Shown: positions 6,665 through 61,531 of the stretch, in pieces
How positions within the stretch are numbered: position 1 is the first letter of the stretch
Layout: each line of letters starts with the position of its first letter
Assembly: GCA_034530615.2 (NCBI GenBank)
Contig: JAVRCV020000033.1
Coordinates: forward strand, 92,128 to 156,127
Origin: Aulosira sp. ZfuVER01
GTDB taxonomy: Bacteria > Cyanobacteriota > Cyanobacteriia > Cyanobacteriales > Nostocaceae
DNA length: 64,000 nt
Direction: 5' to 3'
Made by a program: the position numbers and the translations under genes
Notes under the pieces: model-generated
The model's database searches: none
What the model was told of the DNA's origin: nothing
The model's input: the letters and a program-made list of their open reading frames with translations, nothing else

Positions 6665-8032
6665 TCAACAGCTTTCGCTATTATCTTGGGGAATCTTTAC
6701 TGTGAAAATTGTTCCAATACCTACCTCACTTTTTACATAAATTTCTCCCTGATGTAGTTCAACACATTTTTTCACCACAGCTAATCCTAGTCCAGTACCA
6801 ACAATTTTGCCCACATTTTCTGCTCGATGAAAAGGCTCAAATAAATGTTTCTGAAATTCCTCCGGAATTCCTAGACCAAAATCTTTAACTTGGAAAATTA
6901 TTGAGTTTGGTTCACCACTGAGAATTAACAATATATCTGCCTCTTCTGGCGAATATTTTATGGCATTAGAAAGCAAATTACTAAGAATTGAGTACAGCAA
7001 ATTTTCATCTAAAGTTGCGTGAGTACAGTTATTTTGACTGATAAATTTAATTGGGTGTTGTGGTTGATTACAAAACTGAATATCTTCAATTAAGTTTAGA
7101 CAAAATGCTTCCAAATCTATAATATCTGGATGAAATTCAAGTTTACCAGCTTCTGCCCTAGTTAGAGTCAGAATATCTGTCAGCAATTGGTTCATTGATC
7201 TAGCTGAAGATTGAATCCGATATAGATTTTTGACTTTCTTTTCTTCTGTCCACTGCTGATTACTCTGAGCTAACAATTGAGCCGAACCTAAAATAATACT
7301 TAAAGGTGTGCGAAATTCATGGGAAACCATCGAAAAAAAGCGCAGTTTCAGTTCGCTGAGTTCTTTTTCTTGAGCTAATGTCCGTTGCAAAGCTTCTGCT
7401 TGCTGGCGCTTAACCAATTGTTGATAAAGCAAGGCGTAAACAGCCAACAAAATAGCAAAACTCAGCACCGTACCCAGGAATTCAATCAACATCCGGTTGT
7501 GAATATTTTCCTGAGAATGTTTAACCGAAATTTCTAATAACTCTTCTTCTCTCACTTGCAACTGAGCTAGAGTTTGCCGAATTTCACCACGAGTTTGGTT
7601 AATTTTCGTAGCTTGCAGAGCAACTGTTGATTTGCCTAATTGCTGAAGGTTAAGCGACTCTTGAGAAAATTCCACTCTTTGAAAAATTAAGGCTTTTAGT
7701 TTTATGAGTTGCTGCTGTTGAGAGGGGTCATCAGCAAGTTGTTTTTGTAACTTTTTGACTTTGGCATTTAAGCTTTGTATTGCCTGATTGTAACGTTCTA
7801 ATTCCGATCGCTCTCCAAATAGAATATAGCCTCTACGTCCTGCTTCGGCATCAGTCAAGGTAGCGAAGATATCAATCAGGCTTTTCATTGCCTCATGTGT
7901 GTGCTTCACTTTATTGCTACTTTCAATTAACTGAGTAGCATTTTGGTAAGAAATAAAACTAACTATACCCATTAATAAGAAAGATAAACCAAAACCAGAG
8001 GCAATCCATTTCTTTTCCAATGACCATTTCAT
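6665..8032 (-). CDS. CHASE3-domain sensor histidine kinase
   Basis: TM-CHASE3 (DAEAGRRGY)-TM, H-box SHEFRTPL, NLLSNAIKY, DFGLGIP, GTGLGL. Confidence 0.93.
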   Translation of the reverse strand: MKWSLEKKWIASGFGLSFLLMGIVSFISYQNATQLIESSNKVKHTHEAMKSLIDIFATLTDAEAGRRGYILFGERSELERYNQAIQSLNAKVKKLQKQLADDPSQQQQLIKLKALIFQRVEFSQESLNLQQLGKSTVALQATKINQTRGEIRQTLAQLQVREEELLEISVKHSQENIHNRMLIEFLGTVLSFAILLAVYALLYQQLVKRQQAEALQRTLAQEKELSELKLRFFSMVSHEFRTPLSIILGSAQLLAQSNQQWTEEKKVKNLYRIQSSARSMNQLLTDILTLTRAEAGKLEFHPDIIDLEAFCLNLIEDIQFCNQPQHPIKFISQNNCTHATLDENLLYSILSNLLSNAIKYSPEEADILLILSGEPNSIIFQVKDFGLGIPEEFQKHLFEPFHRAENVGKIVGTGLGLAVVKKCVELHQGEIYVKSEVGIGTIFTVKIPQDNSESC

Positions 8033-8049
8033 AAGACTACCTTTAAATT

Positions 8050-8102
8050 CCCCGATTTTTACCCGATATTTACCCCTTATCTCTACAAGTTATTGTTAAA
8101 AT
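8050..8102 (+). promoter_or_regulatory. Box 1: triple 11-bp direct repeat plus -10 (TAAAAT 8097-8102)
   Basis: ccccgattttt acccgatattt accccttatct, 14 nt, then taaaat. Confidence 0.8.
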
Positions 8103-8108
8103 AATAAT

Positions 8109-8180
8109 TGAATTAACCTCTTTTACACTATACATTCTTCAAACTATTTTAATTACTTAGTTTGAAGAATTTTAATTTTT
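8109..8180 (+). ncRNA. Candidate small RNA, copy 1 (5' end estimated)
   Basis: No ORF follows box 1. A CU-rich 5' segment precedes a perfect 13-bp stem (8134-8146/8158-8170) and T-tract. Paralogous to 13537-13607. Confidence 0.55.
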
Positions 8181-8469
8181 ATATATCTCAACTACAAAGC
8201 TTATTATACTATTCAGATTTGATTCATCAACTTACTGATTTGATGCGCTACGGCTAGTACAAGCACGCTAGGTAAGCGGTAAATGCGTTACTGCGTTAAG
8301 CGAACCTTGAAGTAAGTGACTGTCGTTAAGGTTAGCGAAGCAGTAGCAACTTTGTGGAATTCTCTTGTTCGCTCTTGGCGTTATTTGAGGATAGAGTAAT
8401 ACAGTTATAGAATATTACAGTTTGTAATGTTTTTTTAAATCCCGTGTCTTTAATAGCTATTCAAAAATT

Positions 8470-8522
8470 ACCCGATTTCTACCCGATTTCTACCCGATTT
8501 TTTGACATATAAGGTGTAAAGT
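8470..8522 (+). promoter_or_regulatory. Box 2: triple 11-bp direct repeat plus -10 (TAAAGT 8517-8522)
   Basis: acccgatttct acccgatttct acccgattttt, 14 nt, then taaagt. Confidence 0.85.
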
Positions 8523-8573
8523 TCAAAATAGAGAAAAACTCATAAGACGATTGATTTTTTTTGTTACACTTAT

Positions 8574-8798
8574 ATGTCTAATTTTTCAGTTAATATTGCT
8601 AACATTGTACTGACTAATGAACAGTATTATAAGCTCAAATTTTATGCAAACAGTCATCATGTATCGCTTCAAAAATCAATTATATTGCTTATTGATTCTC
8701 TGCCTAGACCTTCTAAAAATAGTAAAATTTTAAAAAATAGATATTCAATGTTATCTGCTAGAAACTTTCTGCAAAGGTTTGATAATATTCAAAATTAG
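8574..8798 (+). CDS. 74-aa microprotein, RHH/CopG-like (paralog A)
   Basis: 30/47 N-terminal identities with 14024-14245; strand-helix-helix pattern; stop lies 2 nt before the PBP ATG. Confidence 0.75.
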   Translation: MSNFSVNIANIVLTNEQYYKLKFYANSHHVSLQKSIILLIDSLPRPSKNSKILKNRYSMLSARNFLQRFDNIQN

Positions 8799-8800
8799 CT

Positions 8801-10618
8801 ATGCATAAGTTTCCTAGGAGAACAAAATCTAAAATTTCTCATAATACTTTATTCAAAAAGCAGCAAAGTTTTAGACAATATATAAATAATAGGCTTGCTA
8901 CTAATACCAAAAATCAAATATCTAACACTAGAAACAGATTATTTGTAGTTTGGTGCATATTAATGTTGGCTGGGTTAAGAATAGGTATTAATTTGTATCA
9001 ATTGCAAATTGTGCAGGGAGCAAAGCTCACGAAGAAAGCTAGAGAACAGCAAATGGTAACTTTGCGGCCTTTTACACCTCGACGAATGGTTGTAGATCGC
9101 AACGATCGTGTCTTAGCTCTTGACAGGATTGTGTATACTCTATACGCCCATCCTCAACTGTTTCAAAAAAAACCAGAAGACGTAGCACAACACCTAGCTG
9201 TAATACTTAACAAAAATGCTGATGAATTAGTCAAAATATTTCAAGGAAAAAAAAGTGGCATTTTACTTGATGCTGCTGTGCCAGAAGAAATTGCGACTCA
9301 GATATTTGCATTGCATCTTGATGGCTTAGAACTAACTCAAAAATATTTGCGATTTTATCCAGAAGCAGATTTAACCGCAGATGTAGTGGGTTACATCAAT
9401 ACAGAACGTCAAGGTCAAGCTGGTGTGGAATACAGCCAAGAAAATTTACTAGCGCGTTCTGCACAAACTGTAAGACTCAGGCGACAAGGAAACGGAGCAT
9501 TGCTACCAGATGATGCACCAACAGGATTTCTCAATATTGATGACTTGCGATTACAACTAACAATTGATAGCCGCATTCAACGGATAGCGCGAGCTGCACT
9601 TAAACAGCAAGTAGAAAAGTTTAGGGCGAAACGCGGAGCCGTAATTGTGATGGATGCGTTGGATGGTTCGTTGCTCGCTTTAGTCTCTGTGCCCAGTTAT
9701 AACCCTAATGAATATTCTAAAGCTGATATTTCGCTATTTAAAAATTGGACAATAGCAGATCTGTATGAACCAGGATCGACTTTCAAACCTTTAAATGTGG
9801 CGATCGCATTGGAGACTGGTGTAATTAAACCAGACGATATGTTTGACGATCCTGGTTTTATCAGAGTGGGCGATCGCACCATTAAAAATGCCGAGCAAAA
9901 CAGCGATCGCACGATCGATATTGCTCAAATTTTACAACACTCCAGCAATGTTGGCATGGTGAAAATTATGCAGCGATTGCCAACTTCAATCTATTACCAA
10001 TGGCTACAACGCTTAGGGCTGGGGCAAACTATCCATACAGATTTGCCATTTGCGGTTAGTAGTCAGCTCAAAAGTCAAGAAAAATTTATGGCTTCACCCA
10101 TTGAGAAGGCGACAGCTTCCTTTGGGCAAGGCTTTTCCCTCACAGCACTACAGCTAGTGCAATTGAACGGCGCTTTAGCTAACGGGGGCAAATTAGTGAC
10201 ACCTCATGTAATTAAAGGATTGATTGATAGCCAAGGACAGATGCATTATTCACCCACTCTCCCAACACCACGCCAAATTTTCTCACGCATGACAACTCAA
10301 CAGGTAATTAAAATGATGGAAACTGTAGTAGAACAAGGAACTGGCAAAGCATCAAAGATTTCCGGTTATCGTATAGCTGGTAAAACTGGTACAGCGCAAA
10401 AAGCCAATTCTAGTGGTGGTTATCAAAAAGGCGCTTATATCACCAGTTTCTTGGGTATATTGCCAGCAGAATCTCCTCATTATGTAGTTTTAGCACTGGT
10501 AGATGAAGCGCAAGGAGCAAATGCTTACGGTGGTACGGTTGCCGCACCAATTGTTAAATCTTTAATCAACGCACTGATTCCCCTAGAGCAGATTCCGCCA
10601 AGCCAAGGAGCCAAATAA
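8801..10618 (+). CDS. ftsI: Class B penicillin-binding protein, FtsI/PBP3-like
   Basis: N-terminal TM, RFYP, GQAGVE, SxxK (GSTFK), SxN (SSN), KTGT. Confidence 0.88.
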   Translation: MHKFPRRTKSKISHNTLFKKQQSFRQYINNRLATNTKNQISNTRNRLFVVWCILMLAGLRIGINLYQLQIVQGAKLTKKAREQQMVTLRPFTPRRMVVDRNDRVLALDRIVYTLYAHPQLFQKKPEDVAQHLAVILNKNADELVKIFQGKKSGILLDAAVPEEIATQIFALHLDGLELTQKYLRFYPEADLTADVVGYINTERQGQAGVEYSQENLLARSAQTVRLRRQGNGALLPDDAPTGFLNIDDLRLQLTIDSRIQRIARAALKQQVEKFRAKRGAVIVMDALDGSLLALVSVPSYNPNEYSKADISLFKNWTIADLYEPGSTFKPLNVAIALETGVIKPDDMFDDPGFIRVGDRTIKNAEQNSDRTIDIAQILQHSSNVGMVKIMQRLPTSIYYQWLQRLGLGQTIHTDLPFAVSSQLKSQEKFMASPIEKATASFGQGFSLTALQLVQLNGALANGGKLVTPHVIKGLIDSQGQMHYSPTLPTPRQIFSRMTTQQVIKMMETVVEQGTGKASKISGYRIAGKTGTAQKANSSGGYQKGAYITSFLGILPAESPHYVVLALVDEAQGANAYGGTVAAPIVKSLINALIPLEQIPPSQGAK

Positions 10619-10826
10619 ATATCTGACATTAGGAATATTGCTTTGGCGATCGCTCTTAATTTACCCTAAAACTTAGGGTGCTAAATTATTTTGTAACGCA
10701 ACTACCAACAATAGGGAAATTAGAATTTTTCAGAACTAATTCCTGAATTCAATTATTTATAAATCAACTTGGTATTCTCCAAGATTTTATTTGAGTTAAA
10801 CTTACAAGTGAGGAAGTGAAATTACC

Positions 10827-12752
10827 GTGTCTTCATCTAAAACTTTTGATAAGAAACCATCACAAATTCAAACTTTACCCAGTACTGAATTTTGGAAAGA
10901 AGTTGGTCAAGTAACTGGTGGTACTCTCCTATCAATTATGTTGTTATCAACTGCTGTGATATCTGGAGGATTAGTTGGTTTAGCCATTAGTTTCCGGGAT
11001 TTACCAGATGTTAGACAGTTACGAAACTTTTTTCCCGCAGAAACAACTTATATATATGATATTAAAGGCAAGCTGTTAGCACGCATACACGGTGAAGCTA
11101 ATCGGCAAGTAGTACCTTTAGATGGAATTTCTCCCAATTTAAAACGAGCTGTATTAGCTAGCGAAGACAGTAATTTCTTCGAGCATCACGGTATTAATCC
11201 CGTTGGGATTGGACGTGCTGCAATAACTAACTTCGTAGCTGGAGGTGTACGAGAAGGTGGTTCGACAATCACCATGCAGTTGGTGAAAAATCTGTTTTTA
11301 TCCCAGAAGCGTGCTGTTACCCGGAAAATTGCAGAAGCAATATTAGCAATTAGGTTAGAGCAAGTTCTGACTAAAGACCAAATTTTAGAAATGTACCTCA
11401 ACCAAGTTTACTGGGGACACAATAATTATGGTGTACAAACGGCAGCACGCACTTACTTTAACAAATCAGCTGCAAATTTGACTTTGGCTGAATCTGCAAT
11501 GATGGCGGGATTAATTCCAGCCCCAGAAGAATATAGCCCATTTGTAAACATGAAATTGGCTAAACAAAGACAAAAAGAAGTACTGGGGCGGATGTTGGAA
11601 TTAAATTGGATTAGCCAGCAAGAATATAATGATGCTCTCAAACAACAAATCAAACTAGGTAAAATTAAATCATTTCAAGGTAGTGCTTTGCCTTATGTTA
11701 CCAATACCGTAGCTCAGGAAATAATTAAAAAGTTTGGGCGTGAAGCCTTGCTCAAAGCCGGAATGCGGGTACAAACTACAGTAGACACCAACTTCCAATT
11801 GATGGCAGAACAAACTATTAAGAAATGGCATCAAACCCTTGAAAGTGAAGGGATATATAAAAATCAAATGGCTTTAGTAGCTATCGATCCGCGCACGCAT
11901 TTTGTCAAAGCACTAGTTGGTGGTATTGATGCCAAAAAGAGCGAATTTAACCGCGCCACTCAAGCACAGCGTCAGCCTGGATCTTCTTTCAAGCCATTTG
12001 TCTACTATACTGCTTTTGCCAGTGGTAAATTCACACCCAATTCAACAATACTAGATACCCCAGTTAGTTATCGAGATGGTAGCGGTTGGTATTATCCACG
12101 CAACTATGATAATAGCTTTATGGGCGCAATATCGATTCGTACTGCCGTTGCTCTGTCTCGTAATATTCCAGCAATCAAAATTGGCAAAGCTGTAGGCATG
12201 AATAAAGTCATTGAAACTTGCCGTACCCTAGGAATTATGAGTCCAATGGTTCCGGTAAGTTCTCTGCCATTGGGGGCAATTGGTGTGACACCACTGGAAA
12301 TGGCTAGTGCTTATGCAACTTTTGCTAATTATGGTTGGCAATCACCAGCGACGATTATTGCCCGTGTGACAGATAGTAGTGGTAATGTGTTGCTAGATAA
12401 TACTCCAAAACCGCAACTAGTTCTTGACCCTTGGGCATCAGCAGCAACTTTAGATGTGATGCAATCGGTAGTGAATGAAGGAACTGGTAAAGGTGCAGCT
12501 ATCGGCCGTCCAGTCGCCGGAAAAACCGGTACAACTTCCTCAGAAAAGGATATTTGGTTTATTGGCACTGTACCGCAGTTAACGACTGCTATCTGGGTAG
12601 GGAGGGACGACAACCGACAATTAGCTCACAGCGCAACAGGTGGTGGTACTGTGGCTCCTGTCTGGCGTGATTTTATGCAGAAGGCACTCGAGGATGTACC
12701 AGTAGAAAGATTTCAGCCACCTTCTAAGTTTTCTCGTCCTAAAGCAGATTGA
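10827..12752 (+). CDS. Class A penicillin-binding protein 1A family (transglycosylase/transpeptidase)
   Basis: EDSNFFEHHG, GGSTITMQLVKN, RKIAE, GSSFK, SRN and KTGT motifs. Confidence 0.93.
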   Translation: MSSSKTFDKKPSQIQTLPSTEFWKEVGQVTGGTLLSIMLLSTAVISGGLVGLAISFRDLPDVRQLRNFFPAETTYIYDIKGKLLARIHGEANRQVVPLDGISPNLKRAVLASEDSNFFEHHGINPVGIGRAAITNFVAGGVREGGSTITMQLVKNLFLSQKRAVTRKIAEAILAIRLEQVLTKDQILEMYLNQVYWGHNNYGVQTAARTYFNKSAANLTLAESAMMAGLIPAPEEYSPFVNMKLAKQRQKEVLGRMLELNWISQQEYNDALKQQIKLGKIKSFQGSALPYVTNTVAQEIIKKFGREALLKAGMRVQTTVDTNFQLMAEQTIKKWHQTLESEGIYKNQMALVAIDPRTHFVKALVGGIDAKKSEFNRATQAQRQPGSSFKPFVYYTAFASGKFTPNSTILDTPVSYRDGSGWYYPRNYDNSFMGAISIRTAVALSRNIPAIKIGKAVGMNKVIETCRTLGIMSPMVPVSSLPLGAIGVTPLEMASAYATFANYGWQSPATIIARVTDSSGNVLLDNTPKPQLVLDPWASAATLDVMQSVVNEGTGKGAAIGRPVAGKTGTTSSEKDIWFIGTVPQLTTAIWVGRDDNRQLAHSATGGGTVAPVWRDFMQKALEDVPVERFQPPSKFSRPKAD

Positions 12753-12793
12753 AAATATTAAGGTGAGATTAGGTATCAATAAATATTTGAGAA

Positions 12794-13471
12794 ATGAGGA
12801 TTTTGGTAGTTGAAGATGATGTCCAACTAGCAGAGATGCTAATGGAAGCCCTCACTGACCGTCAATATGTGGTGGATGTAGCCCAAGACGGTGAAGAAGC
12901 ATGGGATTTTATCAAGAGCTTGGAATATGACTTAGTGGTGCTAGACATAACCTTACCTAAATTAGACGGTGTTAGTTTTTGTCAACGCTTGCGATCGCAT
13001 CACCGGAGTCTGCCTGTCCTCATGTTAACAGCACGCGATACCCTGGCTGACAAAGTTACTGGCTTAGATGCAGGCGCAGATGACTATATGGTGAAACCTT
13101 TTGAAATGCCAGAACTGATGGCTCGCATTCGCGCACTGTTGCGCCGCAATCAAAGCACAGCCTCTTTTCCTGACCTCAGTTGGGGCGAGCTACATTTAAA
13201 TTCCAGCACTTATGAAGTCACCTATGCAGAACATCCCTTACATCTGACACCAAAAGAATTTGCCCTTCTAGAACTTATGGTTTCTAGCGGTCGGCGGGTA
13301 CTCAGTCGCACTGGAATTATTGAGCGCATCTGGTCACTTAATGACCCACCCAGCGAAGAAACGGTGAAATCTCACATTAAGAGTCTCAGAAATAAACTCC
13401 GAGAAGCAGGCGCTCCTGATGATTTTATTGAAACAGTGCATGGACTGGGCTATCGTTTAAAGCAGCTTTAG
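12794..13471 (+). CDS. OmpR/PhoB-family response regulator
   Basis: REC (VVEDD, LDITLP, KPF) plus winged helix (LTPKEF, ETVHGLGY). Confidence 0.95.
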   Translation: MRILVVEDDVQLAEMLMEALTDRQYVVDVAQDGEEAWDFIKSLEYDLVVLDITLPKLDGVSFCQRLRSHHRSLPVLMLTARDTLADKVTGLDAGADDYMVKPFEMPELMARIRALLRRNQSTASFPDLSWGELHLNSSTYEVTYAEHPLHLTPKEFALLELMVSSGRRVLSRTGIIERIWSLNDPPSEETVKSHIKSLRNKLREAGAPDDFIETVHGLGYRLKQL

Positions 13472-13477
13472 AGAACT

Positions 13478-13530
13478 ACCCGATTTCTACCCGATATTTA
13501 CCCGTTAGCTCCACAATTAATTGTTAAAGT
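13478..13530 (+). promoter_or_regulatory. Box 3: triple 11-bp direct repeat plus -10 (TAAAGT 13525-13530)
   Basis: acccgatttct acccgatattt acccgttagct, 14 nt, then taaagt. Confidence 0.82.
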
Positions 13531-13536
13531 TCTACA

Positions 13537-13607
13537 AAGAATAACTCCTTTGGAACACCACAATTTCTCCAAACATCTTAATTATTTCGTTTGGAGATTT
13601 TAATTAT
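13537..13607 (+). ncRNA. Candidate small RNA, copy 2 (5' end estimated)
   Basis: AACTCCTTT segment, stem tctccaaac/gtttggaga (13566-13574/13589-13597), TTAATTA loop and T-tract; paralog of copy 1. Confidence 0.55.
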
Positions 13608-13689
13608 TAATAAACAACGCTGAATTATTTAGTGACGGGAAAATCCTTAGTTTTATCACTAACAAACTTAAGGGTACATCTACACAAAT

Positions 13690-13739
13690 AAAGTCCACCT
13701 ATCTTTGATATCGTTGGAAGGTAGGTGGACTTTGTTTTT
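13690..13739 (+). terminator. Strong hairpin / intrinsic terminator
   Basis: aaagtccacctatctt...aaggtaggtggacttt (16 bp, one G-U) followed by gttttt. Confidence 0.65.
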
Positions 13740-13919
13740 AAGATAGCGACTTTTATACTAAAATTTTAGATTTTTAATTTAGAATTTGAGATTAATAATT
13801 AGCTCATTTCAATGTTTGTTAACTCCTGAAATGCAATAGTTAACAGTCATCAGCCAATAGCAAAAATAAATATTTTTTCAAACTTAAATTTCATTTCTAA
13901 ATTATTGATTTTCATGAAT

Positions 13920-13972
13920 CACCGATTTTTACCCGATTAATACCCGATATTTTAACTTCTAGGGCGTAACAT
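13920..13972 (+). promoter_or_regulatory. Box 4: triple 11-bp direct repeat plus -10 (TAACAT 13967-13972)
   Basis: caccgattttt acccgattaat acccgatattt, 14 nt, then taacat. Confidence 0.8.
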
Positions 13973-14023
13973 CTCAGAAGACCCGCAATTTTGCAACATG
14001 GTTTCCATTTTGAGTAAATTCCT

Positions 14024-14245
14024 ATGTCGCAATTTTCAGTAAATATTGCCAATATCGTTCTCACTAGTGAGCAATATCTTAAGCTCAGAATTTATGCAGA
14101 AACTCGTCAGATATCAGTGCATGAGACGATTAGGTTACTTGTTGATTCTCTGCCAGTACCGTCCAGAGCTAGCAAAAAAATAGATAAAATCCATCCTTTT
14201 TTACTATCTAGAAAACTCCTGCAAACTTTTTTTAATGTTCAGTAA
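14024..14245 (+). CDS. 73-aa microprotein, RHH/CopG-like (paralog B)
   Basis: Paralog of 8574-8798. ATG lies 104 nt after the box start, exactly as for paralog A. Confidence 0.75.
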   Translation: MSQFSVNIANIVLTSEQYLKLRIYAETRQISVHETIRLLVDSLPVPSRASKKIDKIHPFLLSRKLLQTFFNVQ

Positions 14246-14307
14246 TTGAACTCTGAACGTCAACAGCTAATTACCAATCTTTGAATTTTGTAGGTAGGAA
14301 TTTGGCC

Positions 14308-14869
14308 ATGAATAATCTTGTTCCTCTAAGTTTAGTTGGATCTTTGGAAAATCCTATCCCAGAAACACATTCTCAACCCACTTATGCATTAATTTCAGTT
14401 CATGGAGATCCTACGGCTGAAATTGGTAAAGAAGGAGCAGGTGGACAAAATATCTACGTGCGGGAATTAGGATTAGCATTAGCAAAAAAGGGATGTGAGG
14501 TTGATATATGTGCATGGTACAACCGGGCTGTTAGTACCTCCAGGTAATCATCACGATCTAACAAGAGCTATTAGTAATTTGTTAGACAACCCTAATTTAA
14601 GGCAATTTTATGGTAATGCTGCATATAGTTGGGTTCAGTCTCATTTTAGCACTCAAGCAGTCACCAACCAAATTTACGAACTCTATCAATCACTAACGCT
14701 TTCTACGTTCGTCTAAGAAATAATTCAAACTCATAATGTAACGCCGAACTTAGAAAAGCAAATTCAAAATTTGTTGAAGTCAAAAGCTTTAAAGCCGAGC
14801 GAAATTAAAGCTCTAGAGAAATTAGTTGACTCCTTTTCTAATGGTACTGTGCAGTGGGTTAATAGTTAA
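14308..14869 (+). pseudogene. GT4 glycosyltransferase (sucrose-phosphate synthase-like) with large internal deletion, frameshift and probable nonsense
   Basis: N-terminal ISVHGDP...AGGQNIYVRELG joins out of frame to C-terminal TGLLVPP...QIYELY. The frame stays open 50 codons past TAA 14714-14716. Confidence 0.8.
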
Positions 14870-15385: not shown

Positions 15386-16156
15386 ATGAAACTACTTCTA
15401 GTGATTGACTTAGACAATACTCTGCTTGAAAAAGACCAAGGTACTACGGTTTTAAACCAAAGGTTAGCAGGATTCCGCAAGTATATCTATTTGCTCTATG
15501 TTACAGATAGCTCTTATACTTCTAGTCGTAAATTTATAGCAAAAGCAAAGCTCTTGAAACCAGATTACTTAATTGCTAGTTTAGGTACTGAGATTTATCA
15601 ACAGGGTTTGATTTTAGAACAGGATTGGGCACATTACATCTCAAAAGACTGGAATAGAGATACAGTTTGGGCAATTGCTAGCCAATCTTCGAGATTGAAA
15701 CTTCGCTCTAAAAGTGAACAAACTCGTTGGAAAATTAGCTTTAAGCTAGATACGGCTGCTGAACTTCATGTTATTGATGATTTGCAAGATTTATTAAACT
15801 TTGCGGGATTATCGGCTCAGGTTATTTTCAGTAATGGGCGCGATGTTGATATCGTACCCAAAAGCAGTAATAAAGGTAAAGCTACTGCATATCTGCAACA
15901 ACTGTTGCAAGTGGAACTAGAAGCAACTATTGTCTGTGGAGGTTCGGGAAATGACATTAGCCTATTTCAACTACCATCACCGGGAATTATTGTGAGTAAT
16001 GCTCAGACACAATTGCTTCAATGGCATTATAAGACGCATTTCCCTTGGCACTATTTAACTCATTACCCTCATGCTGCTGGTATTCTGGAAGGACTGGTTT
16101 ATTTTAATATTTTGCCATTCCCTAACAGCTGGCGATCGCAACCCATTTCCAATTAA
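15386..16156 (+). CDS. spp: Sucrose-phosphate phosphatase-like HAD-IIB hydrolase, possibly inactive
   Basis: DLDNTL, KPDYLIASLGTEIY and NKGKA are present, but YVTDSS replaces TGRS and CGGSGND replaces CGDSGND. Confidence 0.75.
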   Translation: MKLLLVIDLDNTLLEKDQGTTVLNQRLAGFRKYIYLLYVTDSSYTSSRKFIAKAKLLKPDYLIASLGTEIYQQGLILEQDWAHYISKDWNRDTVWAIASQSSRLKLRSKSEQTRWKISFKLDTAAELHVIDDLQDLLNFAGLSAQVIFSNGRDVDIVPKSSNKGKATAYLQQLLQVELEATIVCGGSGNDISLFQLPSPGIIVSNAQTQLLQWHYKTHFPWHYLTHYPHAAGILEGLVYFNILPFPNSWRSQPISN

Positions 16157-49988: not shown

Positions 49989-51527
49989 GTGACAAATAAT
50001 ACGATTGGTGATTATCACACTTTACTCACATCAAGTTCTCAATTTAGTAACGATAGCAGTTTGTTATCAATAGTTAATCTGCTTGCTGACACATTGGGGA
50101 TATACATCCCTTCACAGCATCAAAATGGCTTAAAGAAAACCATCCTCGAACGAATCAACGCCTTAGGATTATCATCAGTTAACGACTACTACCAGTATTT
50201 AGTCATAAAAAAACGGCTGCTCCCTACTGAAGCAGAGTGGCAAGAACTGATCCTGCGGTTAAGTGTGACTGAAAGTTATTTCTTTCGAGATCGAGGACAA
50301 TTTGGGTTGCTGAAAAATCAAATTTTCCCAGAATTAATTGAGCGCAAACGACGGCTACATTTAGCTCAGGCTGCCAATGGACAAAAACCTACATTACGGC
50401 TGTGGAGTGCTGGCTGTTCTACGGGTGAAGAAGCTTACTCTCTTGCCATTATCTTAAAAGAGTTGGTCTTTGATTATCAGGCGTGGGATATTCGGATTCT
50501 GGGGACAGACATTAACCAATCTGCGATCGCGCTAGCTCAACAGGGAATTTACAGCGATTGGTCTTTTCGGACAATCGATCCAGCAATTAAAACCCGCTAC
50601 TTTCGATCGCACCGCAAAGACTGGGAAATCGATCCCAACATTCGGCAAATGGTCTCCTTTCAACCCGGAAATCTCATGCAACCCTTTCCAGATAGCCTAT
50701 CTGGAATTTACGATTTAGATTTAATTATTTGCCGCAACGTGTTTATTTATTTTGATTGCAGTGCGATCGCTCAAGTTATACAAAAGTTTTATCATTCTCT
50801 AGCACTGGGTGGATTTCTCCTTACAGGTCACACAGAATTGTACGGGCAAAAAATTGCGCCGTTTCAAGTTAAAAGTTATCCGCAATCTGTGATTTACCAG
50901 AAGGCAAACGACTATTTAGATCCTCGACTCTTTGAAAAAATCGGGGATCTCAATCCAACTTCTCCTCCACGCTCCAACTTGGGAGAAAAGCCAGGGTTTC
51001 AGCGTCAGCCTTCAGCCGAACAGGTCAGGGCAAACACGCAGCAAGCCCTTTGGGAGCAAGCGCAACGATCGTTCGCTCAAAAAGCCTATGCCGATGCCAT
51101 TCAAACTACAAAAAAACTGATTGACCTTGCTCCTAAACACTTTCAAGCACACTGTTTAATCGCAGAGGCTTACGCAAAATTAGGTCAATATTCCCATACT
51201 ATGCAAGCCTGTCAACAAGCACTCCAAATCAATCCACTAGCTATCGAACCCTATTATTTTTTGGCTCAAATTGCTGAAGAACAGGGTGATATTGAGCAGG
51301 CAAAATTATACTTAAAACGTATTATTTATCTAGCTCATGATTCTGTCTTTGCATATCTAAAATTGGGTTTTATCTATGAGCGCGAAGGAAATGCCAAACA
51401 AGCTCAAAAAACCTGGCGATCGCTTTTAGAAGTTTTGCGAGCTTTACCCCAAGAGCAAGTGATTGATTCTAACAATCAGCAAACTGTTGCTGAATTAAAA
51501 TTACAGATTATTAAGTACCTGAATTGA
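49989..51527 (+). CDS. cheR: CheR methyltransferase with C-terminal TPRs
   Basis: TESYFFRD, WSAGCSTGEE, GTDIN, CRNVFIYF and a TPR region. Confidence 0.92.
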   Translation: MTNNTIGDYHTLLTSSSQFSNDSSLLSIVNLLADTLGIYIPSQHQNGLKKTILERINALGLSSVNDYYQYLVIKKRLLPTEAEWQELILRLSVTESYFFRDRGQFGLLKNQIFPELIERKRRLHLAQAANGQKPTLRLWSAGCSTGEEAYSLAIILKELVFDYQAWDIRILGTDINQSAIALAQQGIYSDWSFRTIDPAIKTRYFRSHRKDWEIDPNIRQMVSFQPGNLMQPFPDSLSGIYDLDLIICRNVFIYFDCSAIAQVIQKFYHSLALGGFLLTGHTELYGQKIAPFQVKSYPQSVIYQKANDYLDPRLFEKIGDLNPTSPPRSNLGEKPGFQRQPSAEQVRANTQQALWEQAQRSFAQKAYADAIQTTKKLIDLAPKHFQAHCLIAEAYAKLGQYSHTMQACQQALQINPLAIEPYYFLAQIAEEQGDIEQAKLYLKRIIYLAHDSVFAYLKLGFIYEREGNAKQAQKTWRSLLEVLRALPQEQVIDSNNQQTVAELKLQIIKYLN

Positions 51528-51715
51528 ATAATTACTAATTCGTAATTCAAATAAAGATACAATCGCCTTAATTTATCAATGGATAAATAAAATACATAGC
51601 ATCAATCTTTCAAACCCATGTCTTCAGATATGAGGCAATAATTACGAATCAAGCTGACAACAACTCCGTTGTTTTTCAATTGAACGATATAAATTACTTT
51701 CCAAGGATTCAACAA

Positions 51716-53164
51716 ATGTTAAACAATTTCAAGCTCAGAGGACAAATATTTTTGGGATTTTCACTCCCCGTGACATTGCTGATTGGCTTAAGCGGACTGA
51801 TTGTTGTAATTGGCAATCAAACCGCCCAAACCTTTAAAGAAGTTGGACGTGTTCAACAGGTAATTATTTCAACGGATGACATGGTTTTACGAACATCGAT
51901 GATGGCTCGTCAGGCACGAGGGTATCTCCTAGTTCAAAATAACGATCCAGTACAAGAGTTTGATAAACAGAAACGACTTTATGAGGAGGCGGTAGCAACT
52001 GCAAAACCATTAATTGATGACGAGAAGCAAAAACAAGTTTTTGACCGAATGCTCAAACTTGGAGAAGAGTATGATGATATGTGCAAACAAACCTTCCGCC
52101 TGATTGAGCAAGGCAAGCTCAAAGAAGCCACAGATCTGTACTTGCGAGAATCGAAAGTGCTTGTGGGAGAGCTGGATCAACTGGGGGAAGAATTCAATAA
52201 GCGTGAGCAAGAAATTTTGTCTGGACTGACGCACAATACTATAAATTCAATGAGCTTTTTAATATTTGGCGCGATCGCTGTCGCTCTTTTAGGGCTGATC
52301 CTTTCGAGTGGAGCAGCTTCTCTGATTTGGGCGAAAGTAACTAAAACGGTGAATCGTTCGGTGGAGGCGATCGCTAGTTCTACATCAGAAATTGCCGCAG
52401 CAGTGGAACAACAGGAACGAAGTGCAAATCAGCAAGTAACGGCCGTCAGCCAGACTACAGCTACGATGGATGAACTCAAGGCTTCCGCACGACAATCGGT
52501 GGAGCAGGCTGACGCAGCCACAGTCAGCGCTCAACAGGTGTCTACTTTAGCATCCTCAGGAACTAAGGCAGTAACGCATAGTTTAGAAGATATGGCAGTT
52601 CTCAAACAGAACGTGGAAAAGATTACTGAACAAATTCAGCGATTGAGCGAACAAGCAGGACAAATCAGTGTCATTTCTACGTTAGTTGGCGATCTTGCCA
52701 GTCAAACCAATATGTTAGCTCTGAATGCAGCTGTCGAAGCAGTGCGGGCTGGAGAACACGGTAAAGGTTTTACGGTTGTGTCTGGAGAAATCCGCAAGTT
52801 GGCAGATCAAAGTAAGCAGTCTGCGGAAAAAATTCGCGTGCTGATCAAAGAAATTGAAACTGCGATTAATACCACGGTTTCTGTAACCGATGAAGGAGCC
52901 AGACAAGTAGAGCAAGGTGTAAAAACAGCTAAGGGAACGGCTGAAACTTTTGCTGGAGTTGCCGATGCCATTAGCACAATTGTCTTTAATAATCAGCAAA
53001 TTTCCCTGACTGCCAAACAACAATTGATCGCAGTTCAGCAAGTAGTTGAGGTGATGAGCAACCTCAGAATAGGAGCCGATCAAACAGCTTCTGGCATTAG
53101 TCAAACGAAAGTTGAAACTCAACAACTCAATGAAGTTGCCCTGAATCTCAAAGCAGTGGTTTAA
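51716..53164 (+). CDS. Methyl-accepting chemotaxis protein 1 (CHASE3-like sensor)
   Basis: TM-sensor-[25 protein letters not shown]. Confidence 0.92.
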   Translation: MLNNFKLRGQIFLGFSLPVTLLIGLSGLIVVIGNQTAQTFKEVGRVQQVIISTDDMVLRTSMMARQARGYLLVQNNDPVQEFDKQKRLYEEAVATAKPLIDDEKQKQVFDRMLKLGEEYDDMCKQTFRLIEQGKLKEATDLYLRESKVLVGELDQLGEEFNKREQEILSGLTHNTINSMSFLIFGAIAVALLGLILSSGAASLIWAKVTKTVNRSVEAIASSTSEIAAAVEQQERSANQQVTAVSQTTATMDELKASARQSVEQADAATVSAQQVSTLASSGTKAVTHSLEDMAVLKQNVEKITEQIQRLSEQAGQISVISTLVGDLASQTNMLALNAAVEAVRAGEHGKGFTVVSGEIRKLADQSKQSAEKIRVLIKEIETAINTTVSVTDEGARQVEQGVKTAKGTAETFAGVADAISTIVFNNQQISLTAKQQLIAVQQVVEVMSNLRIGADQTASGISQTKVETQQLNEVALNLKAVV

Positions 53165-53265
53165 AAAGGCAGAGGGCAGGAGGCAGAAGGAAATGCTGAT
53201 TTCTAGCTTCTGCTTCACCCGCTACCTAATGTCCTAACTCTGTAGTTTCAACATCCAAAATTGCC

Positions 53266-54276
53266 ATGAACACTCAATCCTACTTAATGTTCAAACTGAA
53301 TCACTCACGCTATGGCATTCCGGTTACAGCCGTGCAAGAACTCTTTTTTCTGCCAGAGATAACGGCGATCGCCAAAACTCCACCAGGCGTTTTAGGTGCA
53401 ATCAACCTGCGGGGAGAACTTTTGTCTGTAATCGACTTACATCAGCAATTAGGAGAACCCCGTTCGCCCTTTCAACTTACCGATAGTACGATCGTGCTGG
53501 AGTGGCAGACTCAACGGGTGGGAATTATCGTCAATCAGGTGGATGAGGTACAAGCGATCGCTTTGGCTCAAATCACTACTAACTTATATGGTGAGTCACA
53601 AGCTGGATTAACAGTCGGTATCGCCACTGTTGAGAATGAAATTGTGACGCTGCTCAATCCTGAAATACTAGTGCAGCATAGGACTGAATCGGTAAATGAC
53701 GCACTCAAACATACTAATGATTCAGGCTTTGCTCAGGGACTATACAACCATTTCGACGCACAGGCACGACAGGTTTTAAGAGAACGAACTTTTGGGTTGC
53801 AAGATGCGATCGCCGAGCAAGAATCTGTCGGACTGATGCCTTTAGCGGTTGTGGGTTTAGGCGGTGAATACTTCGGGTTTGAATTGGAAACGGTGCATGA
53901 ATTTACCGAGATTCATAAAATTACCCCAATTCCCTGCTGTCCCCCGCATATTGTCGGCAACATCAATTTACGCGGTGAAATTGTCACCTTGATCGATATC
54001 AGTGATGTAGTTGATTTGTCGATGAATGCAGTGCGATCGCAGCTACAAGCAGTAATTGTCCGCCTAGAACAAAGAGTTGCCGGAATTGCGGTGGATGACA
54101 TTTTTGATGTTGTCTACATTCATCCATCGCAAATGGCCACAATTCCAGTGGCCATGCATTCTGCTAAAGACGACTATCTCCAAGGAGTTGCACCCTACCA
54201 GGACAGGATGATGAGCATCATTAATTTGTCCAAACTTTTAACTTCAGACGTGTTAGTTGTAAATCAAGAAGTTTAA
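53266..54276 (+). CDS. cheW: Tandem two-domain CheW
   Basis: GAINLRGE and GNINLRGE motifs. Confidence 0.9.
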
Positions 54277-54277
54277 T

Positions 54278-55732
54278 ATGCAATACAACTTTAAGCTTGG
54301 TCGGGTTGTGACGTTTGGGTTTAGTTCAGTGTTTTTGGTTATGGTTGTCATTGGCATTGTCTCCAAATTCACAACCAGCAAGTTAGTAGAGTCTAATGGT
54401 TGGGTCAGTCATACCTACCTGGTAGAAGGAAATCTAGAAGATATTACTAAGCTTCTGATCGATGCTGAAACTGGACAGCGCGGCTTTATGCTGACCCAAA
54501 AAGCCAACTATTTGGAGCCTTACCACAAATCTTTTGCCAATTTTGAGGCAACCTTTGATGAGGTCAGCAAGCTGATTCAGGACAACCCAGAACAATTAGC
54601 GCGGTTGAATCAGGTTAAGCGACTGGCACAAGAAAAAATGGCAGAACTAACCGAAACCATAGAACTGACACAAGAGGGAAAACGCCAAGCGGCAATGAAT
54701 ATTATTGTTTCCAATAGAGGCAAACAAATTATGGATGAAATCCGCGACAAACTGGCACAAATGACCCAGGTTGAGGAGCGCTTGCTGGCAGAAAGACAAC
54801 AGACAGCAAAGCAAACCGCATTCTTGTCAGATCTGGTTTCCTTGGGAGGAACTGCGATCGCGCTGTTATTTGGCTCATTGGTGTTGTTCTTTATTGCCCG
54901 TGAAATTGTGCGACCGATTAACCAAGTTGCTAATGCGATCGCCTCCTCATCCAATGAAATTGCGGCTACTGTCGAGCAACAAGAGCGCACTGCCACCCAA
55001 CAGGCAATTTCGGTCAATGAAACCACCACCACTATCAATCAACTCAGTGCCTCTGCCCAACAGTCTGCCCAACAAGCAGAAACAGCTTCTATCAGTGCTC
55101 AACAGGTTTTAAATTTAGCGGATCGAGGCAATCAAACAGTGACCCGCACCCTGGAAGGAATGATAGTTCTGAGCCACAAAGTGAATGCGGTGGCAGATCA
55201 AATGCTGCGCTTGAACGAACAAACTATGCAAATTGGCAGTATTTCTGAATTGGTAAGCGATCTGGCAAATCAGACTAATATGCTGGCGTTAAATGCTGCG
55301 GTAGAAGCAGTCCGGGCTGGAGAACAAGGTAAGGGATTTGCCATTGTTGCCGCTGAAATTCGCAAGCTGGCAGACCAGAGCAAGAAATCGGCACAAAAAA
55401 TTAATGGACTGGTAAACGACATTCAATCTGCCATCAACTTGACCGTTACCATGACCGACGAAAGCACAAAAACTGCTGCTCAAGGAGCGGTAATGACTGA
55501 GCAGACCGTTGAAGTATTTGCCGATGTCACGAATGCTGTTAGCAGTATGGTGCTAAATATTCAACAGATATCGCTCAATGCCAAACAGCAAGCCACTGCG
55601 GTTGAGCAAATCTTACAGGTAATGAATTCGCTGAATGTAGGTGCTAAAGAAACCGCTAGTGGTATCAGTCAGACTCGCGTTAGCACTCACCAACTCAACG
55701 ATGCTGCTGACAAGCTACAAGCTGTTGTGTAG
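54278..55732 (+). CDS. Methyl-accepting chemotaxis protein 2 (CHASE3)
   Basis: [15 protein letters not shown] and the MCP signalling tip. Confidence 0.93.
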
Positions 55733-55849
55733 ATCGGGCTTTCGCTAAATGCAAAAACCGGATGAATTCAGAAGTCTCATCATCAAGGATAGAACTGATG
55801 GAAACAGCTACGAATTTTTTACCTCATTTACCCTACTAGAGATAGACAG

Positions 55850-57256
55850 ATGGAAATTAAGCAAAATTGGAGACTGAGATACTGGATTATTGGCGGGTAT
55901 GCTGTGCCAGTACTAGCATTGGTTGTGTCTGCGAGCGTGACGCTTTTCAATATCAATATTGTCAGCCAGCGATCGCAAGATTTGGTTTCGTCTTATGACA
56001 TTAACTCATTGTTTAATGACGTGGCTGTTAATGTTCAAAGCAGTTCTAAATCAGTGCGCGGCTATTTATTAGAAAAGAATCAGCAATCACTGAATAATTA
56101 CCAGGAGTCCTACGCAAACCTCAAAGAATTTTTAGCAAAATTGATGAAACTTGCCAGAACTGAGCAGGAACGAAAGTCCTTGATTAAGCTTGAAGAGATG
56201 CTCCATCAACTGGCTCAGATCAATGATGATTTGATTGTAAAGGTAAATCAGGGCAAAACCAAAGAAGCGATTGAAACCTGGAGCAAGAAGAACGCACTAA
56301 CTCTAGTAGAGAATATCACTACTTCGGTTGAAGAAAAGCAGCATCAAGAAGACCAAAGAGTTGCAACTGCTACAAAGCAACAGCAAGATGCGATCTCCCT
56401 TCTAAAAGTGACGATTGTATTCGCAAGTGGAGTATCGTTGCTGTTATCAATTTTGATTGGGATCTGGGTAATTCGCCGAACTGCCCAACAAATGAACGCC
56501 TCAGCCAGTGCGATCGCCTCCTCTACAACTGAAATTGTCACAACGATCGAGCAGCAAGAACGTACTGCCCTTCAGCAAGCCACTTCTGTAAATCAAACCA
56601 CTACCACAATGGATGAGTTGGCAGCTTCCTCACGCCAGTCTGCGGAACAAGCAGAGGCCTCCGCCGTTGGTGCCCAACAGGTGTTGCTACTAGTCGATGG
56701 TCGGACTCAAGATGGGCAAACTAACCAATCGAGTTTGCGTGAGAAAGTCGGAGATATCGCCAGCCAAATTCTCCACCTGAACGAACAAACCAGCCAAATT
56801 GGTATGATTTCCACCCTTGTGAGCGACTTGGCAAATCAAACCAATATGCTGGCATTGAATGCGGCTGTAGAAGCAGTACGGGCAGGGGAACAAGGCAAAG
56901 GCTTTGCGGTTGTCGCTGCCGAAATTCGTAAACTGGCAGACCAGAGTAAGAAATCAGCCGAAAAAATCAATGCACTGGTCGTAGACATTCAACGTTCGAC
57001 GAATTCCACTGTCATAGTCACAGATGAAGGCACTAAAACCGTGGAAAAGATTGTCGATGCGATGAAAACCATCGCTTTGAATGGTCAACAAATTTCTCTC
57101 AATTCCAATCAACAGGCGATCGCCGTTCAACAGGTTGTAGCAGCGATGAACTCGCTCAACATTGCTGCTAGAGAAACTGCCTCTGGCATCAGTCAAATTA
57201 AAGTTGGCACCCAACGTCTTAACGATGCTGCTCAGAATTTAAAAGACATTGTTTAA
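55850..57256 (+). CDS. Methyl-accepting chemotaxis protein 3 (shortened signalling domain)
   Basis: TM-sensor-TM and MCP tip; lacks 14 residues relative to MCP1/2. Confidence 0.9.
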   Translation: MEIKQNWRLRYWIIGGYAVPVLALVVSASVTLFNINIVSQRSQDLVSSYDINSLFNDVAVNVQSSSKSVRGYLLEKNQQSLNNYQESYANLKEFLAKLMKLARTEQERKSLIKLEEMLHQLAQINDDLIVKVNQGKTKEAIETWSKKNALTLVENITTSVEEKQHQEDQRVATATKQQQDAISLLKVTIVFASGVSLLLSILIGIWVIRRTAQQMNASASAIASSTTEIVTTIEQQERTALQQATSVNQTTTTMDELAASSRQSAEQAEASAVGAQQVLLLVDGRTQDGQTNQSSLREKVGDIASQILHLNEQTSQIGMISTLVSDLANQTNMLALNAAVEAVRAGEQGKGFAVVAAEIRKLADQSKKSAEKINALVVDIQRSTNSTVIVTDEGTKTVEKIVDAMKTIALNGQQISLNSNQQAIAVQQVVAAMNSLNIAARETASGISQIKVGTQRLNDAAQNLKDIV

Positions 57257-57421
57257 AAAAATACCATTTTCGATTTGGGATTTTAGATTGTCAATTGTTT
57301 ATTAACATAAGATTTTTAGCAATCTATCTGTTGAAATCCTTTACAAATTAGTATAAAGAATCACAAATAATCCTAAGCTAAATTCGCAATTCCCAATTCT
57401 GAAGTAACCGGAGCTAACCCC

Positions 57422-59842: not shown

Positions 59843-60942
59843 AGCAATCTACTCCCATCCGTGTCTTTCTAGTTGAGGATTCGCCCGTCGCCTTAACCAT
59901 CCTCAAGCGAATTCTGGCGAGTTCTACCGAAGTCAGCGTGGTAGGAACTGCCCCGAATGGTGTGGAAGCATTGGCGCAAATTCCCACTGCCCAACCCCAG
60001 GTAATTTGCACCGATCTGCACATGCCCCACATGAATGGTTTAGAACTGACTCGTCGGCTGATGGCAGACTATCCCCGTCCCATTCTCGTAATTAGTGCTT
60101 CCGTCAACACCCAAGAAGATTCGCGCAATGTGTTTGAACTACTGCAAGCTGGTGCTTTGGATGTCTTTCCCAAACCCACCGTTGGCTCACTTTCAGACTA
60201 CGAACAAATCAAGCAGGACTTAATTAACCGGATTAAAGTTTTAGCGGGAGTTAAAGTTTTTACCCGTCACCCGACAAGAATTGAGAGTGCAGAGTTAACA
60301 ATCAAGTCTGTGAAACCCAAAATTGGCAATGAAGCATTCAGCCCAACACCTGCTAGGACTTCTCAATTCTCTCCATTGAAAATCGTAGCGATCGGAGCCT
60401 CTACAGGCGGCCCCCAAGCATTGCACACGATTCTCAAACAGTTGCCTGCAAACTTTCCTGTGCCCATTTTGTGTGTACAACATATTAGCGAAGGATTTTT
60501 ACTTGGGCTGGTTGACTGGCTAGCAGCAGAATGTTCCCTGCGCGTCACGATCGCCCAGCCAGGAGACTTACCCAAACCAGGCACTGTTTATTTTGCGCCC
60601 GAACGAAAACACCTGCAACTAGATGCTCAAGGACGATTTCTCACTAGTAGCACACCTGCTGTTTCCGGTCATCGTCCCTCCGTAACCGTACTATTTCAAG
60701 CCCTTGCTACCTGTTACCCGCGATCGACTGTTGGCATTCTCCTAACTGGTATGGGACGCGATGGTGCAGATGGACTAAAGGCGATCGCCTCTTCTGGAGG
60801 TGACACCATTGCCCAAAATGAGCAAACCTGCGTTGTATTCGGGATGCCAAAGGAAGCGATCGCTCTGGGAGCCGCCCAACAGGTTTTGCCAATTCATGAA
60901 ATTGCGCCGATGCTTTTGTATCGAGTTTTGGCAATGAAGTAA
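59839..60942 (+). CDS. cheB: CheB protein-glutamate methylesterase
   Basis: REC plus intact triad motifs GASTGG, VQH and TGMGRDG. Confidence 0.94.
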   Translation: MKQSTPIRVFLVEDSPVALTILKRILASSTEVSVVGTAPNGVEALAQIPTAQPQVICTDLHMPHMNGLELTRRLMADYPRPILVISASVNTQEDSRNVFELLQAGALDVFPKPTVGSLSDYEQIKQDLINRIKVLAGVKVFTRHPTRIESAELTIKSVKPKIGNEAFSPTPARTSQFSPLKIVAIGASTGGPQALHTILKQLPANFPVPILCVQHISEGFLLGLVDWLAAECSLRVTIAQPGDLPKPGTVYFAPERKHLQLDAQGRFLTSSTPAVSGHRPSVTVLFQALATCYPRSTVGILLTGMGRDGADGLKAIASSGGDTIAQNEQTCVVFGMPKEAIALGAAQQVLPIHEIAPMLLYRVLAMK

Positions 60943-60955
60943 CAATTGATTTGAT

Positions 60956-61354: not shown

Positions 61355-61499
61355 AGCTGGTAAGTGGATGAGCTTTATTTTCATCATTCCCAAAGCAACA
61401 CCCTAAAGATAGATATTTAATAAATTTTTATTAAAATTTTAAGGTTCTGAAAGAGCAAAGGCTGTCACTGGCGCTAATGAATTGATTTTTGTTAATGTT

Positions 61500-61531
61500 C
61501 ATCTCCCCGATTTCTTTGAGAAATCGGGGAA
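61500..61531. repeat. Palindromic dispersed repeat flanked by 9-bp direct repeats
   Basis: tccccgatttct ttg agaaatcgggga, with gttaatgtt at 61491-61499 and 61532-61540. Confidence 0.65.

Follow-up and report, generated by a model that had tools for sequence, protein, structure and literature searches.

A two-component system of Aulosira that may switch on sibling small RNAs against murC alongside two penicillin-binding proteins

Results

Gene content of the locus

The DNA analyzed here, hereafter the window, is a stretch of 64,000 nucleotides forming part of contig C33 of the Aulosira sp. ZfuVER01 genome (8.0 Mb, 41% GC). It holds a two-component system, genes for wall synthesis and sugar metabolism, four repeat boxes and two sRNA-like units, arranged as follows.

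6665..8032, minus strand: CHASE3-HisKA-HATPase sensor histidine kinase (Pfam PF05227, PF00512, PF02518), divergent from the other genes
8050..8078, plus strand: Box 1, three 7-bp direct repeats with consensus ACCCGAT and an 11-bp period
8094..8102, plus strand: extended -10 (TG-n-TAAAAT) of sRNA copy 1, with TAnnnT phasing
8109..8180, plus strand: predicted sRNA copy 1, with predicted start at 8109/8110, leader, 13-bp hairpin (8134-8170) and U-rich tail (8171-8180)
8470..8522, plus strand: Box 2 (8470-8498) and phased -10 (8517-8522), preceding a small ORF and the pbp genes
8574..8798, plus strand: 74-aa ORF directly behind a box, paralogue of 14024-14245
8801..10618, plus strand: class B penicillin-binding protein (PF03717 and PF00905)
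10827..12752, plus strand: class A penicillin-binding protein, transglycosylase plus transpeptidase (PF00912 and PF00905)
12794..13471, plus strand: OmpR-family response regulator (PF00072 and PF00486)
13478..13530, plus strand: Box 3 (13478-13506), located 6 nt past the stop codon of the regulator, and extended -10 (TG-n-TAAAGT, 13522-13530)
13537..13607, plus strand: predicted sRNA copy 2, with predicted start at 13537, leader, 9-bp hairpin (13566-13597) and U-rich tail
13920..13972, plus strand: Box 4 (13920-13948) and phased -10 (13967-13972), from sequence pattern
14024..14245, plus strand: 73-aa ORF directly behind a box, paralogue of 8574-8798
14281..14716, plus strand: family-4 glycosyltransferase gene reduced to a remnant by a large internal deletion (the version of one relative encodes 478 aa)
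15386..16156, plus strand: sucrose-phosphate phosphatase (TIGR01485, 233.7 bits against a cut-off of 183.65), a recurrent cluster member by synteny

The closest named relatives of the regulator are Tolypothrix, Calothrix and Nostoc records, which places the genome among the heterocyst-forming cyanobacteria, and the protein fell below every NCBIfam named cut-off displayed (RppA, 236.9 against 250). In most orthologous loci the kinase is divergent and lies beside or near the regulator, and by this synteny the two are likely partners. The widespread gene order is kinase, regulator, box, sRNA, box, small ORF, glycosyltransferase and phosphatase, while pbp genes and a second sRNA copy are found between kinase and regulator in some lineages only. 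A box precedes a GlsB/YeaQ-like gene in one relative. Taken together, the cluster neighbours (PBPs, glycosyltransferase and sucrose-phosphate phosphatase, and the GlsB/YeaQ-like gene) suggest a role in envelope or osmotic stress.

The pair of 73-74-aa ORFs is conserved within the cluster, with a Pfam family absent for both. Pfam and NCBIfam searches with the 74-aa ORF gave no match, and the 73-aa ORF had an Atlas neighbour named CopG family (score 0.93; RHH_1 in 10% of members), a weak lead by which both ORFs could possibly be ribbon-helix-helix regulators. The glycosyltransferase behind Box 4 is about 0.9 kb shorter than the versions of relatives, and an RNA contig from one relative carries 879 additional letters at 14507-14509. 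Truncation also affects the class B pbp gene or the small ORF in several relatives. Farther along the window, ORF translations alone delineate a chemosensory cluster at 49989-63582 (CheR-like, several MCPs, CheW, CheA, CheB and CheY-like).

Two sibling sRNA-like units

The original prediction had placed paralogous, unannotated small RNAs at 8109-8180 and 13537-13607, and both elements were recovered there. Their paralogy was borne out as well: within the 8.0-Mb genome neither has a good match apart from the other (blastn E 7e-5), and their global alignment score of 42.5 exceeded that of all 1000 shuffles (mean 26.9, sd 2.4, maximum 36). The leader of copy 1 contains CCUC and ACAC halves, with a predicted pairing region at 8117-8133, and that of copy 2 contains ACUCCU and ACACCAC halves at about 13543-13561. 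The hairpins fold at -14.0 kcal/mol (z -5.8) in copy 1 and -12.6 kcal/mol (z -2.8) in copy 2. A terminator scan called neither hairpin, both being A/U-rich with long loops and interrupted U-tracts.

Several structural details had also been proposed. Leaders described as single-stranded were predicted to be unpaired in copy 1, but weak 3-bp self-pairing appeared in the leader of copy 2. On the plus strand no ORF of at least 20 aa begins in either leader, consistent with the claim that Boxes 1 and 3 drive no ORF; a TTG ORF of 31 aa begins within the copy-1 hairpin. The compensatory U-A/C-G change between the two stems is real, but covariation in an alignment of 27 distinct sequences did not rise above shuffles (111/500), and the pair concerned is U-A in a single sequence (copy 1 of the window), U-G in five and C-G in 21; the change is a recent one. 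Similarly, the TTAATTA loop is common to the two window copies but varies across the family.

Public RNA data came from four runs of one study, which held 5% of the words, and the contigs derive from a relative. These contigs cross the locus continuously and are uninformative on ends, strand or level.

Promoter boxes and the adjacent regulator

Matches to ACCCGAT-N4-ACCC with one mismatch numbered seven in the window, against 0.33 expected, and all fell within the four boxes. Of 68 distinct triple boxes (the window plus 40 fetched loci), 56 carry TAnnnT, with variable middle bases, at an offset of exactly 47 nt from the first repeat, while any other offset from 30 to 64 was found in at most 13 boxes; several of the 12 off-phase boxes were called one repeat out of phase. 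Because the -10 sits 47 nt after the first repeat, the third repeat falls at the -35 position, as is expected of an OmpR/PhoB-type activator site. The end of Box 1 and the start codon of the kinase, on the opposite strand, are 18 nt apart.

We inspected the 400 nt behind the stop codon of 80 regulator homologues, and found a CCCGA-type box in 56, a TGCAC-type box in eight and neither, by the rule used, in 16. A recognition helix with H-x-R-G was present in all eight TGCAC-type loci and in none of the 56 CCCGA-type loci. Since box type tracks recognition-helix residues, the adjacent OmpR-type regulator is likely to bind the boxes, with the proviso that each box type may represent a single clade.

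The TGCAC-type 11-bp repeat replaces the CCCGA type behind a paralogous H-x-R-G regulator at L171, L178, L179, L192, L196, L198, L199 and L204, and this exchange is possibly a natural specificity switch. The TGCAC-type box may resemble the RcaC L box, a likeness for which a literature search gave no paper. Elsewhere in the Aulosira genome, a single contig (G000:C56:23137-31107) carries a cluster of five promoter-like sites whose repeat (CCCCTAGTTCTCCCCGAT type) is related to the box repeat yet distinct from it; they suggest a second regulon, that of a paralogous regulator. A strict, exact box pattern run on 301 genomes of the phylum matched the Aulosira genome alone; this pattern was too strict, with few carriers sampled, for the result to show absence.

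Distribution and conservation of the units

The units, whose unpaired leaders span 25-45 nt, are conserved across many filamentous cyanobacteria; carriers among the named records include Calothrix sp. NIES-2100, Fischerella sp. PCC 9431 and Nostoc flagelliforme FACHB-838. Strong matches to the units were present in 10 of 14 other genomes of the same genus, nine of them with both copies. A covariance model built from 29 sequences (R1) had matches in 17 of 150 family genomes at E <= 0.05, and on inspection 14 of these were behind the regulator or a box. Applied to 80 named loci, R1 returned 55 plus-strand matches in 39 loci; among the 41 loci with a regulator identity of at least 80%, 39 carried a unit and 16 had two copies. 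The named-locus and family-genome sets partly overlap, such that their counts are not additive, and the genomes are related, so that the counts are not independent. The position of copy 2, directly behind the regulator, was the most widely common across genera. Weak R1 matches in G137, G078 and G022 and on contig C52 of the Aulosira genome lacked a box and were set aside on inspection, while a weak match in G114 sits behind the regulator and a box.

A second model made for distant members (R2) had strong matches in seven genomes. In distant genera the leader was kept, the upper stem was replaced and the hairpin was largely different. Three genomes of one genus (G165, G074 and G131) carried four tandem units behind the regulator, each with box, promoter, leader and hairpin, about 150-200 nt apart and with diverged leaders (L050:10030-10650, L051:9850-10535 and, on the reverse strand, L052). 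Units 2 and 3 of these arrays pair poorly or unevenly with murC, the predicted target considered below, and may have other targets. A few lineages (L133, L134, L135, L139, L143 and L167) have 100-150 nt inserted between the -10 of the box and the conserved leader, an arrangement that would give a longer RNA or hold a second promoter.

Conservation ended at the U-tract. Orthologue identity drops to about 0.3 shortly after it; measured from the start of the 3' arm, the fall is complete within 30 nt in copy 2 and within 50 nt in copy 1, whose set includes one copy-2 row. Across 52 distinct plus-strand sequences, 94% of stem cells were paired and two-sided changes occurred at seven of 12 pairs. 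Over the nine core pairs G-U outnumbered A-C by 39 to 7, which identifies the plus strand; this alignment had been fitted to the model and is biased in its favour, with seven minus-strand rows of A6 dropped, and in a smaller MAFFT alignment the two stood at just 12 to 7 over all 12 pairs. Covariation in the stem is modest.

Other classes of element were considered and rejected. A closed ORF of at least eight codons occurred in just 10 of 47 units and leader indels were not multiples of three, which speaks against a small protein-coding gene; a 21-aa minus-strand ORF (8070-8135) kept its ATG in five of 11 other copy-1 rows, and a conserved start codon and reading frame was not found across the family on either strand. 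A mobile or repeated element was discarded with only two copies in the genome and no match among 72,556 plasmids.

Collectively, the phased -10, the conservation that ends at the U-tract, the strand-specific G-U pairs, the tandem arrays, the retention of the leader while the hairpin changed, and the specific predicted envelope target support the reading as sRNAs. This comparative evidence favours the proposal of trans-acting RNAs of about 70 nt with an anti-SD-like seed, and both elements are likely conserved promoter-leader-terminator units encoding sibling small RNAs of that length. That the units are functional sRNAs we regard as highly probable.

Predicted pairing with murC

A simple codon model called 6,390 genes, of which 6,360 start regions were scanned; this caller gave a wrong start for mraY, and other targets may be missed. 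In an accessibility-aware scan murC, identified by TIGR01082, ranked first for copy 1, third for copy 2 and third for Yfr1, the last serving as a positive control that also recovered alr, omp85 and two porins in its top 28. When the window from -35 to +10 was used, the ribosome-binding region of murC came first of 6,360 for both copies, and it was first for 10 and in the top three for 13 of 15 leaders (13 hand-picked for diversity plus the two window copies). Among 23 shuffled leaders murC was never first (best ranks 3 and 5, median 178). Averaged over the 15 leaders, murC had a z of -5.4 against -3.9 for the next gene.

The computed duplexes lie over or next to the SD, and comprise 17 bp at -20.7 kcal/mol for copy 1 and 16 bp at -23.3 kcal/mol for copy 2; one family member would form 18 contiguous pairs. 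Full shuffles matched the real murC score in 1/45 cases for copy 1 and 4/45 for copy 2, and when the anti-SD part was kept and only the ACAC half shuffled, the score was matched in 1/45 for each. Against the murC leader of their own genome, 38 of 44 units from 26 genomes beat all but at most three of 300 background regions, as did one of 18 control leaders, while six of the 44 units pair poorly. The murC leader consists of two or three UGGUG units, a short spacer and the SD, and owing to this composition differing inserts can pair in different registers. It is also G/U-rich and sticky, such that shuffled seeds still reach a mean z of -2.1 to -2.9, and of 39 distinct leaders just 22 outscored their own shuffled versions against it (p <= 0.05). 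The seeds do not follow the small spacer polymorphism of murC exactly. Further, the same murC site is present in four genomes of the genus that lack a strong sRNA match, so Yfr1 alone explains the conservation of the site. In Nostoc PCC 7120, Yfr1 is described as constitutive and as repressing murC at the ribosome-binding site, on experimental grounds (PMC6974561, available portion).

Other candidate targets fared less well. Pairing with mraY was weak (-16.9 and -13.6 against -24.8 for Yfr1), and neighbouring genes ranked from about 275 to about 5,950 of 6,360 by raw duplex for both copies. Porins and Yfr2 found little support as partners: the porin rank was about 200 for both copies, against 16 for Yfr1 and 3-6 for two candidates with an intact motif, and duplexes of the window copies with Yfr2 reached about -12 to -14 kcal/mol (p 0.28 and 0.16 against shuffles). 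Pairing with alr was weak.

Relationship to known sRNAs

The original prediction held that copy 2 loosely recalls the Yfr1 core without matching it. The likeness proved stronger, in that both motif halves are present in both copies, but an insert splits them. The units share with Yfr1 (RF01116) the CUCCU/CCUC and ACAC halves and a terminator hairpin at the 3' end, and they are predicted to pair at the ribosome-binding site of murC, a validated Yfr1 target; they differ in that a variable-length insert divides the motif and the 5' hairpin is absent. Moreover, Yfr1 is constitutive and found phylum-wide, whereas the units lie behind a regulator box and are patchy. The Yfr1 motif is described as an uninterrupted CUCCUC part plus ACACC part (PMC4734099, in the section available). 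The genome's own Yfr1 is on contig C65 (61.9 bits, the only match; gathering threshold 38 bits), and Rfam gave no match in the window at gathering and none at E <= 10 over 8000-14100. The exact 11-nt core had 10 matches in the genome and none in the window; in the units, only the 3' hairpin of the two stem-loops that flank the Yfr1 motif was predicted. Membership of Yfr1 was therefore rejected, on the covariance threshold, the uninterrupted motif and the two stem-loops alike. Some Nostoc members repeat the ACAC part. The mode of action is likely the same as that of Yfr1.

The Yfr10-like group, comprising Prochlorococcus Yfr10, Synechocystis SyR5 and Nostoc TSS 2515196r and 3750139f, comes close in several respects. 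In these short RNAs the Yfr1 motif recurs within a different structure and at a different locus, with targets described as overlapping but distinct (PMC6778093), and the two Nostoc representatives appear in Table S3 of PMC4734099 as a leader plus a single terminator. Their motif is intact, while that of the units is split, and with no intact Yfr1 motif outside the Yfr1 locus in the units, membership of this group was rejected too. The regulators of yfr10 are stated to be unknown in PMC6778093; the units adjoin a two-component system and its box. The Aulosira genome has three Yfr10-like candidates with an intact motif and terminator (G000:C8:227186 and 227594, plus strand and about 400 nt apart, and C33:18086, plus strand), and three Yfr2/Cyano-1 matches on C73 and C34.

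Two systems outside the phylum offer an analogy only. LhrC1-5 of Listeria monocytogenes are described as multicopy, CU-rich sRNAs that depend on the two-component system LisRK, are induced by envelope stress and block translation of an envelope gene (PMC4132741, available portion); they are near-identical copies of 111-114 nt with three CU motifs, whereas the units are diverged siblings of about 70 nt with one leader. Streptococcus pneumoniae csRNA1-5 are five similar sRNAs under CiaRH, a regulator tied to beta-lactam resistance and cell integrity, and are reported to pair at the target SD (PMC4507080, available portion), although the studied target, comC, concerns competence. Like both, the units are multicopy, with two or more related members that each have a separate promoter and terminator, and each promoter has a putative regulator-type direct-repeat site with a fixed -10 phase.

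Rfam, literature searches and string searches of the Nostoc PCC 7120 sRNA table yielded no description of the family; a 2026 screen for conserved RNA structures in 202 cyanobacteria (PMC12873609) might list the hairpin. The available part of a Fischerella TSS table (PMC5580265) had no match, and neither the regulator nor the RNA is described in the accessible text of two N. flagelliforme papers (PMC13131328, PMC12157317). The units thus represent a conserved and apparently undescribed sRNA-gene family tied to a two-component system.

Discussion

We consider it reasonably probable that the CHASE3 kinase/OmpR pair switches on sibling sRNAs that block translation of murC, alongside two penicillin-binding proteins, a proposal drawn from comparative sequence and modelled duplexes. 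From synteny and the neighbouring genes, the kinase would phosphorylate the regulator under envelope or osmotic-type stress. Activation of four local promoters would follow from binding of the regulator to the triple box, which stands in place of the -35; the phasing is read from sequence and the binding and its sign are presumed. Transcription would end at the hairpin and U-tract, whose structure and strand are supported, and the leader with its two Yfr1-motif halves would pair over the ribosome-binding site of murC, according to the computed duplexes, and block translation. The UGGUG units, spacer and SD of murC would accept differing insert lengths. The outcome would be an inducible, narrower layer atop constitutive Yfr1, in which peptidoglycan precursor supply falls while the co-regulated PBPs and sucrose genes rise.

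Several other explanations were weighed. The units may be regulator-controlled sRNAs whose real targets are other strong-SD mRNAs, or a set such as omp85, hpnH and alr, the fit to murC being a by-product of a Yfr1-derived or generic anti-SD seed. In keeping with this, 14 (copy 1) and 10 (copy 2) of the top-40 predicted Yfr1 targets are within the top 100, omp85 and hpnH score better than shuffles with 13 and 14, respectively, of 39 leaders, the poor pairing with murC of array units 2 and 3 comes from one genus, and the gene starts are imperfect. Nevertheless, the mean z of murC over 15 leaders is well clear of that of the next gene, and a generic anti-SD seed hardly accounts for the rarity with which shuffles of the ACAC half matched the murC score, and on balance we find this explanation unlikely. 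We hold it to be very unlikely that the hairpins act only as terminators or insulators, with copy 2 ending the pbp-pbp-regulator mRNA, copy 1 being a duplicated passenger and any short transcripts functionless. Copy 2 is indeed 66 nt behind the regulator's stop codon, a position common across genera, and copy 1 arose with the duplicated box-ORF module; however, copy 1 lacks a co-oriented upstream gene and yet persists in 16 loci, a separate box and phased -10 accompany every unit, a four-unit array would have no need of extra terminators, and it is the unpaired leader rather than the hairpin that survives in distant genera. The hairpin of copy 2 may, in addition, terminate the pbp-pbp-regulator transcript that arrives from upstream. 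Another strong hairpin (-26.7 kcal/mol), with T-rich sequence at its tail, lies at 13690-13733, about 80 nt beyond copy 2, and may be the main terminator of the upstream operon.

Least probable, to our minds, is a local or RNA-directed action, whereby copy 1 would exert antisense or interference effects on the promoter and leader of the kinase, or both copies would be decoys for Yfr2 or an RNA-binding protein. The short distance from Box 1 to the kinase ATG means that the kinase leader may overlap copy 1 on the opposite strand, and minus-strand -10-like hexamers lie at 8151-8146 and 8208-8203, but several relatives have 300-450 nt between kinase and box, and the widespread single copy is behind the regulator, far from the kinase leader. 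As for decoys, Yfr2 is described as binding the Yfr1 motif (PMC6778093, available portion), but pairing with two Yfr2 5' ends beat shuffles for just 5/39 leaders each.

Returning to sRNAs that act on murC, we tentatively extend the proposal, at somewhat less than even confidence, to an envelope-stress regulon in which the kinase/regulator pair drives a cassette of one to four Yfr1-like sRNAs. Their inserts would retune the seed to murC and away from porins and Yfr2, making them an inducible arm of the Yfr1 network, and the same box would turn on PBPs and sucrose genes. How control of wall synthesis by a constitutive sRNA is modulated is a question raised in the Nostoc Yfr1 paper (PMC6974561, in its available part), and the units provide a testable answer in the form of regulator-linked siblings aimed at one common mRNA. 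An uncharacterised two-component system would in turn gain a binding box, a post-transcriptional output and, in the PBPs, sRNAs, glycosyltransferase and sucrose-phosphate phosphatase, a local regulon. The arrays show promoter-plus-sRNA units duplicating and their seeds diversifying.

Finally, we observed related arrangements in a few non-heterocystous cyanobacteria, where a box of related type, a short leader (in many cases containing UACUCC or UACCCC) and a strong terminator come after the regulator, without an R1 match (L164:7672-7800, L168:4290-4450, L183:4140-4300, L200:650-820 and L182:7680-7840). These diverged, box-driven and terminator-ended units suggest that the arrangement is older than Nostocales. 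For three of them, murC ranked 698, 45 and 6.
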